From the UHGV virus genome UHGV-0133741: a DNA stretch of 64,000 nucleotides; one strand, 5' to 3'. Of this stretch, positions 52,765-55,481 are shown piece by piece; positions within the stretch are counted from its first letter, which is position 1, and every line of letters starts with the position of its first letter. Source of the DNA: a virus. The position numbers were made by a program, and so were the translations under genes. The notes under the pieces were generated by a model. It had not been told where the DNA came from. It ran no database searches and saw only the letters and a program-made list of their open reading frames with translations.

Positions 52765-53111
52765 GTAACCGTTTTTACATGATGTGCTTGCGTGAAACCG
52801 TGGGTAATAACGCCTCATTCCATTGCCATAACGGCAATGGTTACAGCTCTGATATCGATCGCGCTCATGTTTACACGCTGGAAGAAGCCCAAAAAGCCTG
52901 GAATTGTGGGCGAGATATCGAGCCACCTATTAGCGCCAATCTTGATGTTGCTGGTGGCAGGCTGGTTTCGGTTCTATTTGGTGATTACCGCGACGACTTC
53001 TTTCAGCCTGAAGAAGTTGATGTAGTGCGAGAAGCATTAAACGAGCTAAGTGTTGATAACGATGATGCTCATGCGGAAATCATCAAAAAAATGGAACTGC
53101 TAACTCACTGA
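52725..53111 (+). CDS. hypothetical protein
   Basis: Track ORF; probable start near 52776 (MMCLRETVG...). Confidence 0.3.
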   Translation: MHRSATPPRRQPVSNRFYMMCLRETVGNNASFHCHNGNGYSSDIDRAHVYTLEEAQKAWNCGRDIEPPISANLDVAGGRLVSVLFGDYRDDFFQPEEVDVVREALNELSVDNDDAHAEIIKKMELLTH

Positions 53112-53289
53112 ATTATCAATTATGGTGCTATCACCTACGACACCGAGAGAAATTTTATAATGTCAAAAGTAAATGTTTTGATTTTTTCAGCAATTGTTGG
53201 CTTTGGTTTTACTGCCGGAGTGCAGATTTATATTGCGTGGGAAAAAATCATCAACTACGCATGGAGTTGTTTTATTAAGTGAGGTAAGT

Positions 53290-53583
53290 ATGTGGAGAGG
53301 TAATAGTCATGGCAAAAGCCAGATGATACTTACCGAATATCAGCTCGACCACAAAACCAATAAATCACGTTCAGTATATTTGCTTCGCCACAATAGCCGC
53401 GTAAGGAATACCGTGCTGGAGCAAAATCTGACCGTTGAAATGGATAATTACGGGGGCTTCAAGCCAACAATATCGCTTGATGATTTTCCTCGTGGTTTAA
53501 GCGAAAGAGAAGCAATGCTGAAATTAGCAGAATGGCTACAAAGATTAAGCATTGCTATTGAAGATAACTGGTCTGAACCTTAA
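53290..53583 (+). CDS. hypothetical protein in AT-rich segment
   Basis: Track ORF 53194-53583; probable start at MWRGNSHGK... Confidence 0.3.
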   Translation: MWRGNSHGKSQMILTEYQLDHKTNKSRSVYLLRHNSRVRNTVLEQNLTVEMDNYGGFKPTISLDDFPRGLSEREAMLKLAEWLQRLSIAIEDNWSEP

Positions 53584-53918
53584 ATTAATATGATGACACT
53601 AAAACATTTTCTTGACCGCACATTATGGGCGGCAGCCGCAGGCTATGACTTTAATTATATGGATTGCATGTCTTATACCGCTAATCCATACGACCATTCG
53701 TTCAGCCTGCTGTTTAATTCTTTAAGAATATTGCCGCAAACAGAAGTTGGATAGCTTCATTTATGGCTATTGGGCTTTATCGCGGCTGTCGTTGGCATTG
53801 CTGTATGGCCTTTTATTTTCTGGCTGGAGACATACCGGAAAAAGTATTTCTTAGGTGATGGAATGACTGATATTGCCAAAATAAACATTGAAAAATGGAC
53901 TAAGGAATGTGAAAAGAA

Positions 53919-54563
53919 ATGGCGGAAATGACCAGAATCACTGAAGAGCGTATATCAGAGATTATTTCCCGTATCGAAATGTATGGTCACGGTGCTGGAC
54001 ATACGGCAGATGAAGTATTGGAAATAGCCCAGCAGATGCTGGCCTTGAGACAAAAAGAGCAACATGAAAGTAATACGTGTAGATTGAATTTTGAGCAGTG
54101 GCTGGAACAGCAACGCGGAAAAATCAATGTGGACTGTGGTTGTGTGTCCACTGAAACATTCATGCACTGGCTGCGGGTAGCCTACGAGGCTGGCAACTAT
54201 CCGGATATTCCGGATAGTTCGGTGCCAACGCCAGGAAAGGGCGTCACCGGTGAACGTATCCGCATTAAGCCGCATGTTTATCGCGAACTGGTTAACCACC
54301 TCCACGATACAGCGATCAAGTGTGCTGGCACCCAGCAATTACGAGAAAAAATTAGCCGTGTTTTGGGCGACGTTATTACGCCAGATCATCATAAACAAGT
54401 CGAGAAAAGTGGCTTGGAAAGATGTCACCTTGAGGCGGCATTAAACATTAAGCCGGGGCATACGCTTGGCATTATTGATGCACTATTGGTTCATAAGATG
54501 GCCAGGGCTTTACTGCCGCTGGTGGCTGATAAGCATGAGGCGGATCATGCCAACGAAAGCTGA
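53919..54563 (+). CDS. hypothetical protein
   Basis: 214-aa ORF. Confidence 0.35.
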   Translation: MAEMTRITEERISEIISRIEMYGHGAGHTADEVLEIAQQMLALRQKEQHESNTCRLNFEQWLEQQRGKINVDCGCVSTETFMHWLRVAYEAGNYPDIPDSSVPTPGKGVTGERIRIKPHVYRELVNHLHDTAIKCAGTQQLREKISRVLGDVITPDHHKQVEKSGLERCHLEAALNIKPGHTLGIIDALLVHKMARALLPLVADKHEADHANES

Positions 54564-54662
54564 ACAACATGTACTCCACATTGGTATAAATATGGATGAT
54601 ACCAATAACATATTGATATAATAGCAATATGTTGCCAGAGTTAGAAATAAGGAGGATAATCA

Positions 54663-55091
54663 ATGGCAAAACAATTTTGTGTGTTCATTATTGCAATATT
54701 ACTAATTGCTTGTGACTCTAAAACAGTCGTGCACACAGACTACAATATAAATTTATGCAAGAATCTAACTTTTAACGCGGTTTATAAAGCGGCTGAAAAA
54801 AATCATAAACTGGCTGGTTTTAATTCAAATATGAGGGATGCAGTGCTTGCCGTTGCTGGGGATGTTTGCGCACAAACCATAGAGAATACTCTTTATGAAC
54901 CGGAAAAATACATTTTTATTCGCGAAAAAGATAAATACGTTCATGAAAAAGCAGATAATGGCAGTTTGTTAAAAGTGACGGAGGAGTTGCCTGCTGTAAT
55001 TGATTTGGCCAAAACATATGGCAATATGTTGGCGTTAAAAAACAAGGATGATGCGCGGATATTTGCTGAAAAGGCTAATAAGATACCTTGA
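54663..55091 (+). CDS. lipoprotein (moron-like, AT-rich)
   Basis: 142 aa; signal peptide with lipobox LIAC; own AGGAGG Shine-Dalgarno and a TATAAT-like box upstream; terminator downstream. Confidence 0.5.
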   Translation: MAKQFCVFIIAILLIACDSKTVVHTDYNINLCKNLTFNAVYKAAEKNHKLAGFNSNMRDAVLAVAGDVCAQTIENTLYEPEKYIFIREKDKYVHEKADNGSLLKVTEELPAVIDLAKTYGNMLALKNKDDARIFAEKANKIP

Positions 55092-55177
55092 GAGGTTGAT
55101 GCAGAGAGTCTTTCATACCTCATAAACGGCATATTTGCGAAATGTATGTGTGTTCAGATTGGTGTCAGACTTTTATG

Positions 55178-55212
55178 CTAAAATCCCCTCTGTAAACTGA
55201 GGGGATTTTTGT
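55178..55212 (+). terminator. rho-independent terminator
   Basis: AAAATCCCCTCTGTAAACTGAGGGGATTTTT. Confidence 0.45.
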
Positions 55213-55481
55213 ATATGTTGCATAGAGTTTTATGGAAAAGCGTTATTGTTGGCGCGATGTTGGCAGTGTCTGGATGTGCGATGGTGCAATACAATGACGG
55301 CGAAAAGGTTAGCATCCAGTCAGATGGTTGGTATGGCCTGGATAGCCTGCAAAAAACCGCAGATAAAGCCTGTCAGCAATATGGGAAGTCTAAAGCTGTA
55401 TATCAGCATAGCGCGAACGCTAATCCCCATCTCGCTCCCGGTTCGGGGGTTCAGAATACCATCTGGAAATGTGAGCTTTAA
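55209..55481 (+). CDS. small lipoprotein
   Basis: 90 aa; lipobox AVSGC. Confidence 0.4.
   Translation: MYMLHRVLWKSVIVGAMLAVSGCAMVQYNDGEKVSIQSDGWYGLDSLQKTADKACQQYGKSKAVYQHSANANPHLAPGSGVQNTIWKCEL

Follow-up and report, generated by a model that had tools for sequence, protein, structure and literature searches.

A lipoprotein gene with relatives in T1-like phages, found in the variable slot of a P1-like phage-plasmid

Introduction

What is carried in the AT-rich stretch upstream of humD in UHGV virus genome UHGV-0133741, and how much of it is cargo? We analyzed 64,000 nucleotides of this genome (hereafter the window, to which all positions refer). P1-like phage-plasmids occur commonly in E. 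coli and Salmonella and are monitored as vehicles of resistance genes; what a lysogen gains from them is decided by the content of their variable regions. A preliminary description of positions 53100-55215, made from the sequence alone, saw a moron-like segment packed with small open reading frames (ORFs) that ended in a lipoprotein gene, and proposed a variable slot filled with lysogenic-conversion or exclusion genes. We confirmed what was observed there, including the low G+C content (40.6%, compared to 47.1% in the window), and found the interpretation partly supported. Our account is that this stretch consists of the tail of a backbone operon followed by a single moron, which encodes a 142-amino acid (aa) lipoprotein with a proposed role in phage exclusion. 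Its architectural part can be held with high confidence; taken as a whole, the account is slightly favored.

A replacement cassette in a variable slot

Compared to plasmid pRHB32-C05_4 (L005), homology extended until 54572 and resumed from 55175, leaving 602-608 bp between. This DNA takes the place of 529 bp in pRHB32-C05_4 that contain two genes, one for a 94-aa product annotated as 'antitoxin PHD' and one for an 86-aa hypothetical protein; in both L004 and L005, the same flanks are joined across this different 529-bp insert. Junction alignments with L005, L004 and L001 placed the left joint at approximately 54566/54567, six codons into the displaced gene, and the right joint five bases before a terminator stem. 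Thus, the segment lies between otherwise linked genes, as a replacement and not as a pure insertion. Its base composition also departs from the surrounding genome: G+C content was 30.3% in the spacer upstream of the lipoprotein gene, and the minimum for the flagged stretch (33%) was at 54550-54849. These features suggest that 54567-55174 is a distinct cassette and the one true moron of the stretch, which would have replaced two genes by recombination (Table 1).

As the preliminary description had noted, the lipoprotein gene has a Shine-Dalgarno sequence (AAGGAGG), a -10-like element (TGaTATAAT) and a strong terminator (the 55180-55209 hairpin). No recognizable -35 element was found for the candidate extended -10 at 54614-54622, and searches for a C1 operator, a P1 late-promoter -22 box and a LexA box near the cassette were negative. 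The best promoter returned by a generic scan (TTGCCA-17-GATAAT, 54632-54660) was discarded for this ATG because its -10 falls between the Shine-Dalgarno sequence and the start codon. The terminator consists of 11 pairs and a T-run, with a folding energy of -25.2 kcal/mol (z = -5.2; 0/200 shuffles folded as well). It is part of the conserved flank: L004 and L005 carry the same stem downstream of their alternative cassette. At the left end, the stop codon of a 24-codon remnant of the displaced gene overlaps the -10 element.

The neighborhood of the cassette is that of a P1-like phage-plasmid. Identity to P1 was 97.6% at 49000-50963 (from a point in pmgS across pap to where pmgT starts) and 98% at 56161-60000 (from a point in humD, across phd, doc, pdcA/B and lpa, as far as a point in pacA). 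Within the interval, P1 matched only a pmgU piece (54183-54528), a 36-bp hot piece and sequence from within humD onward, and P7 likewise matched in patches. Given these patchy matches and a humD that aligns from nucleotide 86 onward only, end-to-end alignment with P1 or P7 was ruled out, as had been anticipated. Six elements compared for gene content from pmgU to humD had six different sets, in agreement with the published variable region 8, the pmgT-to-humD interval, which is among the eight regions of high variability in P1-like phage-plasmids (PMC9603915). Low G+C content has been tied to several variable regions, including one termed hox-lxr (PMC9603915). The interval is therefore a variable slot, as first proposed, and its variability is already published and not new. 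In P1, it contains pmgV, upfM, upfN, upfO, hot and lxr; upl, which had been listed with hot and lxr for this interval, is not among them. The cassette described here occupies the same genome position as variable region 8, whose hot-less, Toprim-bearing variant also occurs in PLSDB plasmids and, as a remnant, in P7. Loss of hot and variability of the slot are known features of the P1-like family and are unsurprising alone.

Table 1. Location of features in the flagged stretch and its right flank
Feature	Position	Strand	Description
40-aa single-pass membrane peptide gene	53160..53282	+	phrog_5525 full-length, E 1e-24; conserved backbone
97-aa backbone gene	53290..53583	+	phrog_1258 full-length, E 2e-49; coding sequence in L001 and L004
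Broken phrog_2638 gene (54-aa ORF + 53-aa ORF)	53590..53931	+	124 aa in relatives
214-aa PmgU-like gene	53919..54563	+	phrog_21459, E 5e-82; last backbone gene before the cassette
24-codon remnant ORF	54547..54621	+	begins MPTKAE, the start of the displaced 'antitoxin PHD' gene
AT-rich replacement cassette (putative moron)	54567..55174	+	35.5% G+C; breakpoints relative to siblings
Candidate extended -10, TGaTATAAT	54614..54622	+	41 nucleotides upstream of ATG; consensus match, read directly
Shine-Dalgarno sequence, AAGGAGG	54649..54655	+	7-nucleotide spacer to ATG; read directly
142-aa lipoprotein gene	54663..55091	+	Rtp34/BEK12A-type family; lipobox LIAC17, Asp at +2, invariant C32 and C69
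Intrinsic terminator	55180..55209	+	conserved right flank, not cassette; same stem in L004 and L005
88-aa second lipoprotein gene	55215..55481	+	lipobox VSGC; phrog_7757, E 4e-52
hot vestige (theta homologue)	55484..55528	+	first 13 codons only, MSNCNIAAKSQEE
174-aa stand-alone Toprim/primase-like gene	55530..56054	+	phrog_849 'DNA primase', E 1.5e-53; replaces the rest of hot

A lipoprotein family shared with T1-like phages

The N-terminus of the 142-aa protein has the three sequence elements of a bacterial lipoprotein: an n-region with positive charge (MAKQ), a hydrophobic h-region (FCVFIIAILL; Kyte-Doolittle 19-residue maximum of 2.29 at residues 5-23) and a lipobox (L-I-A-C17, fitting [LVI][ASTVI][GAS]C), the last of which was kept in 9/9 variants and in 6/6 distant relatives. 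Asp18-Ser19 directly follows Cys17. In E. coli, Asp at position +2 leads to Lol avoidance and retention in the inner membrane.

Neither this protein nor any relative had a usable match in Pfam, NCBIfam, PADLOC or PHROGs (for Pfam, E <= 0.1 for the 142-aa protein and E <= 1 for relatives, lipobox-type signals excepted). A weak match to phrog_6360 (E 0.008) spans only its signal-peptide end. No similarity was found to the Pfam Bor family or TraT, PDB structure searches gave no match, and none of the seven proteins encoded in the interval matched a PADLOC-DB model (E <= 0.1).

An exhaustive phmmer search against 1.84 billion representatives returned three full-length relatives with 34-40% identity (P0003-5; E 1.9e-17, 5e-12 and 9e-12) and one fragment. 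A tblastn search of phage genomes identified BEK12A and BEK26, both with 37% identity (BEK12A, E 4e-18). Via P0004, the family extends to rtp34 of phage Rtp (E 1e-5), vB_EcoS_MM01, RobRod40 and AugustePiccard (Bas01). Degenerate patterns yielded no further loci in IMG/VR and GTDB representative genomes. All aligned members had the lipobox and invariant C32, C69, N30, N75 and K96, and these residues hold across the family at 22-40% identity. Full-length similarity together with the shared invariant residues places the protein in one family with Rtp34, bas01_0018 and QGH77043 of BEK12A. The AlphaFold2 (AF2) model was helical (pLDDT 82.7, pTM 0.76), and its best viral fold match in Foldseek was the 'Lipoprotein' of vB_EcoS_MM01 (probability 1.0; template modeling score 0.64/0.71), which links the protein to the family by predicted fold as well.

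All relatives outside the P1-like lineage were in T1-like Drexlerviridae. In BEK12A, L023 and L027, the homologue lies downstream of helicase and VRR-NUC genes, with Dam and the lysis cassette close by; in Rtp and Bas01, it lies between the genes for the major tail protein and the tail chaperone. Its G+C content was clearly below that of the surroundings in 3/5 loci and slightly below in the other two, and the T1-type intergenic motif ATAGCAYTTTTTGYTAAAAC preceded it in 5/5 loci inspected. Because of the two locations, the lower G+C content and an upstream motif of its own, the gene is accessory in T1-like phages too. In this respect, the situation is the same as in the phage-plasmid, where the gene is likewise accessory and has its own upstream signal. 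The two settings also differ: the T1-like relatives belong to strictly lytic siphophages and stand behind the T1-type motif ATAGCAYTTTTTGYTA, whereas the 142-aa gene belongs to a P1-like myophage-plasmid that is temperate, and follows a candidate extended -10 of sigma-70 type. In addition, the +2 residue is Asp in the 142-aa protein and P0003, and G, K, F or N in other relatives. The cassette shows that a gene has passed from strictly lytic T1-like phages to a phage-plasmid that is temperate.

The inverted repeat ATAGCAYTTTTTGYTAAAAC recurs before many genes of T1-like phages (L002 4929, L007 3913, L008 3913, L027 5930 and others) and is probably an operator or promoter element of a phage regulator. 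Conserved repeats were reportedly described for Rtp52 in the original Rtp genome paper. The possibility that the cassette retained the T1-type motif ATAGCAYTTTTTGYTA was rejected: a loose look-alike is present at 54622, but the pattern occurs 4 times in the window, which is not significant.

Distribution and maintenance of the cassette

Occurrence of the cassette was limited. Its DNA had no match in PLSDB (distant mode) or in 5,426 complete E. coli genomes, and it was absent from INPHARED P1-like records; a tblastn search of PLSDB with the lipoprotein was also negative. Among 5.8 billion proteins, the lipoprotein formed a single 90% cluster (a word-indexed search returned its own cluster only), which contained nine variants, the commonest of which is found in 101 indexed blocks of assemblies (draft and metagenome). 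More than 100 such assemblies contain the gene, including many clinical and surveillance draft genomes. At every place inspected (L006, L010-L022), it is found in the same slot, after the PmgU-like gene and before the 88-aa lipoprotein and Toprim genes; phd and doc follow in contigs that extend further, and most contigs also call a humD stub. The 142-aa gene is thus a rare member of an unannotated lipoprotein family.

All nine variants kept the signal peptide, the lipobox (LIAC-DS) and the cysteines, and none had an internal stop. Eight of them were full-length or nearly so, and one had an altered C-terminal tail; one variant was a partial record in which three N-terminal residues were missing. 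The ratio of non-synonymous to synonymous substitution rates (dN/dS) could not be estimated for this gene, as sibling alleles differ by 1-2 sites only.

Proposed function

Since neither a C1 operator nor a late-promoter box was detected, the 142-aa gene could be expressed in the plasmid-prophage state, from its own candidate extended -10 and strong ribosome-binding site. Its product would be made as a prolipoprotein and lipidated at Cys17, and the Asp residue at +2 suggests that it would stay in the inner membrane, facing the periplasm. By prediction, the mature part would form a compact helical domain in which Cys32 and Cys69 are probably joined by a disulfide. We propose that the lipoprotein excludes superinfecting phages at the envelope, either by masking a receptor or by blocking DNA entry. 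A phage-directed and not a host-directed job is suggested by the relatives, all of which are accessory lipoproteins that have separate promoters and belong to strictly lytic T1-like phages. Exclusion at the envelope is favored because a benefit to the host is implausible in strictly lytic phages, and because lytic T1 and T5 mask receptors with the lipoproteins Cor and Llp, respectively (PMC13164509). The earlier suggestion of lysogenic-conversion or exclusion genes is an inference, and applies to the 142-aa gene alone. Exclusion as such is a tentative assignment, somewhat short of an even chance.

Several known systems resemble the proposed one in part. Llp (T5) and Cor (T1, phi80, N15 and Rtp45) are small lipoproteins of lytic and temperate coliphages that mask a receptor in the envelope (PMC13164509), and the likeness is one of analogy only: neither Llp (PDB 8A60) nor Cor has sequence or fold similarity to the 142-aa protein. 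They are outer-membrane proteins of ~60-80 residues, whereas the protein described here has a 125-residue helical domain and a predicted inner-membrane retention signal. Ltp of Streptococcus thermophilus phage TP-J34 targets the tape measure protein. It is a prophage-encoded, membrane-anchored helical lipoprotein on the outer face of the cytoplasmic membrane and blocks DNA injection (PMC3952083). Its host, however, is Gram-positive, and PDB searches gave no sequence or structural relationship to the 142-aa protein. Bor of lambda and other morons share with the cassette the organization of promoter (here a candidate one), gene and terminator, deviant composition, location between backbone genes and an envelope lipoprotein as product. 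There is no homology to Bor, and the cassette differs from these morons in that two genes were replaced, instead of a simple insertion, and that its terminator belongs to the backbone.

A number of observations weigh against this proposal. Literature and database searches revealed no annotation or experiment tying any family member to exclusion (literature on rtp34 and Drexlerviridae lipoproteins contained nothing on the function of the family), PADLOC found nothing, and similarity to Llp or Cor is lacking. Rtp-like phages already hold a Cor-like lipoprotein, Rtp45, and a second one would need a different target. The residue at +2 is not constant among relatives (D, G, K, F, N), and retention in the inner membrane is thus no general property of the family. 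As for the promoter, it matches a consensus but lacks a -35, and the generic scan gave 7 sites compared to 8.9 expected, which is not above shuffles. Finally, diversity within the cassette (no more than 1 synonymous and 2 non-synonymous differences) is too low for an analysis of selection.

An alternative is that the lipoprotein is a lysogenic-conversion factor of benefit to the host, such as lambda Bor, Iss or TraT, which would provide resistance to serum or envelope stress and would act outside phage-phage conflict. The cassette has the classical form of such a moron (an AT-rich unit in an E. coli plasmid prophage, with a promoter-like element of its own and an envelope lipoprotein as product), and the presence of the gene in many clinical and surveillance draft genomes would fit. 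However, serum resistance is useless to strictly lytic T1-like phages, where all relatives outside the P1-like lineage are found, and Pfam gave no match to Bor, TraT or another family. We consider a host-benefit role unlikely.

The lipoprotein could also serve in lysis or its control, as a spanin-like, anti-spanin or endolysin-modulating protein that is made late and not in lysogens. Genomic context is consistent with this in some T1-like phages: the homologue adjoins, and is convergent with, a cassette of holin, lysozyme and 133-aa protein genes in metagenomic T1-like L023 and L024, and only a few genes separate it from the holin and lysin genes downstream of it in BEK12A and L027. In the window, the lipoprotein would also be expressed in lytic growth by read-through from the C1-controlled operon. 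Against this, copies in Rtp and Bas01, between the major tail protein and tail chaperone genes, are far from lysis genes, and T1-like loci keep a 132-133-aa gene at the usual spanin position beside the lysozyme gene. O-spanins are short and proline-rich, unlike a folded 125-residue helical domain, and the cassette has a promoter-like element of its own and lacks the P1 late-promoter box. A role in lysis is thus quite unlikely.

It may also be asked whether the cassette has any function. It could be a neutral passenger and a scar of recombination, with its expression or function lost. Polymorphism is too low to reveal purifying selection, and decay is evident nearby in this lineage, where the phrog_2638 gene is broken by an amber codon, hot is a vestige and humD is truncated. 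However, the nine variants retain signal peptide, lipobox and cysteines with no stops, whereas the neighboring gene has one; the Shine-Dalgarno sequence and the -10 are near-perfect, and the invariant residues persist across the family at 22-40% identity. We regard a functionless cassette as improbable.

Envelope-level exclusion of phages therefore remains our preferred function for the 142-aa lipoprotein. In an extended form of this proposal, lipoproteins of the Rtp34/BEK12A type would constitute a new envelope-level superinfection-exclusion family with no assigned structure, used by lytic T1-like phages against competitors. A copy would have been captured and re-promoted by a P1-like lineage, protecting its E. 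coli host from T1-like or other siphophages, possibly at the inner membrane during DNA entry and not at the receptor. This extension is rather doubtful. If the lipoprotein is an exclusion factor, it would represent a new type beside the few Gram-negative exclusion lipoproteins, Llp and Cor, and could explain failure of phage typing or phage therapy in strains with this plasmid lineage; if it is not, the locus is one more hypothetical moron.

Backbone genes upstream of the cassette

Region 52920-54563 had 94-96% DNA identity to pSBF45b, pF1273-3 and many other P1-like plasmids in PLSDB, in which 592 records matched a wider query. It is ordinary backbone, the tail of a pmgT-type operon, and not cargo. 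The moron-like character first assigned to the entire flagged stretch thus applies to the cassette, and does not hold for this block, which P1-like plasmids share at ~94% identity. A C1 operator, OpmgT, is located upstream at 50677, and no strong + strand terminator was found between 50.7 and 55.18 kb. For these two reasons, genes of the block probably form the distal part of a C1-repressed operon, whose transcription would run from a promoter at ~50.68 kb to the first strong terminator at 55180. A scan of 52-57 kb for C1 operators, P1 late-promoter boxes and LexA boxes was negative.

The small ORFs that had been listed are present. They are, however, members of conserved phage families or fragments of one broken gene, and not cargo. 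The 40-aa peptide has one hydrophobic span (residues 7-25; Kyte-Doolittle 19-residue mean of 1.83), is encoded inside the block with 94% identity to pSBF45b and pF1273-3, and was called as a gene in sibling contigs too. Alleles of the 97-aa gene showed more synonymous than non-synonymous changes (e.g., 9 vs 2). The ORFs of 54 aa (53590-53754) and 53 aa (53770-53931) are not separate genes: they matched phrog_2638 at profile positions 1-54 and 62-120, and alignment with L006, L001 and L004 revealed an in-frame change of GAG to an amber codon (TAG) at 53752-53754. An additional 27-bp in-frame deletion follows 53827. The sibling L006 has the amber codon and lacks the deletion, and the gene is intact (124 aa) in the sibling L019. 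The broken gene would be readable through the amber codon only in an amber-suppressor host. It encodes a membrane protein, and the deletion takes out part of a hydrophobic segment. The 214-aa PmgU-like product had 91% identity to residues 1-101 of P1 PmgU (54222-54524, tblastn), and its gene had 94-96% DNA identity to L001, L004 and L005.

A single cargo island that spans all of 53100-55215 and unites small membrane-peptide genes with a lipoprotein gene is highly improbable, and is refuted for 53100-54563: the whole stretch is below the mean G+C content of the window and most of it is missing from the reference P1 genome, but 52920-54563 is ~94% identical in hundreds of P1-like plasmids, its genes belong to established PHROG families, one amber-broken gene accounts for two of the small ORFs, and only 54567-55174 is confined to this lineage.

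Further upstream, lambdoid DNA is located inside the P1-like pmgT operon: 52300-52768, as well as 51454-52332, had 93% identity to Stx2-converting lambdoid phages, near an NinC/PAPS-reductase-family gene. An Rfam search of 52500-56600 (E <= 1) identified no RNA family.

Right flank

A second lipoprotein gene (88 aa) follows the terminator. P1-like plasmids commonly carry it immediately before hot, and it was 92-95% identical in many PLSDB plasmids, where it is next to a gene annotated as 'DNA polymerase III subunit theta'; its changes were mostly synonymous (15.5 vs 3.5 non-synonymous). For this gene, whose ATG is at 55215, the only sequence resembling a Shine-Dalgarno is GAGGGG (within 55199-55217), and this forms the 3′ arm of the stem in the 55180-55209 terminator. 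Its translation may therefore require that the hairpin be open.

In agreement with the preliminary description, no theta-like ORF was found. Searches of the entire 64 kb with P1 Hot, one theta of a P1-like plasmid and E. coli HolE (tblastn, E <= 10) detected only 55484-55564 (E 0.04-0.13, the lowest with the P1-like theta), where a 13-codon vestige (55484-55528) lies to the right of the flagged stretch. No ORF of ~76-87 aa in the window could be aligned with the helical core of HolE or Hot. The vestige reads MSNCNIAAKSQEE, compared to MSDWNIAAKSQEE in pF1273-3, and P1 hot matched 55493-55528 at 89% (blastn). Its ORF diverges after codon 13 and ends at 29 codons.

Directly after the hot vestige is the 174-aa Toprim gene, which has no zinc-finger or helicase part. 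It is annotated as 'toprim domain-containing protein' in L001 and L005, and the same joint between truncated hot and Toprim was found in PLSDB plasmids pSBF45b and pRHB32-C05_4. In P7, no hot is annotated and the Toprim remnant is split by IS903. When P7 (L009, 5088-6418) was aligned with 55842-56106 of the window, the 9 bases of 55918-55926 were present on both sides of IS903, as a target-site duplication.

The humD gene (56115-56465) has lost its 5′ end: P1, L001 and L005 align with it from nucleotide 86 of humD (56161) onward. A deletion has removed the LexA box, the humD start and almost the whole lxr-like gene, and its joint shows an overlap of 12 bp (56161-56172). A 99-aa stub is left that starts from an internal Met, and the same stub was called in most of the sibling contigs that carry the 142-aa lipoprotein gene.

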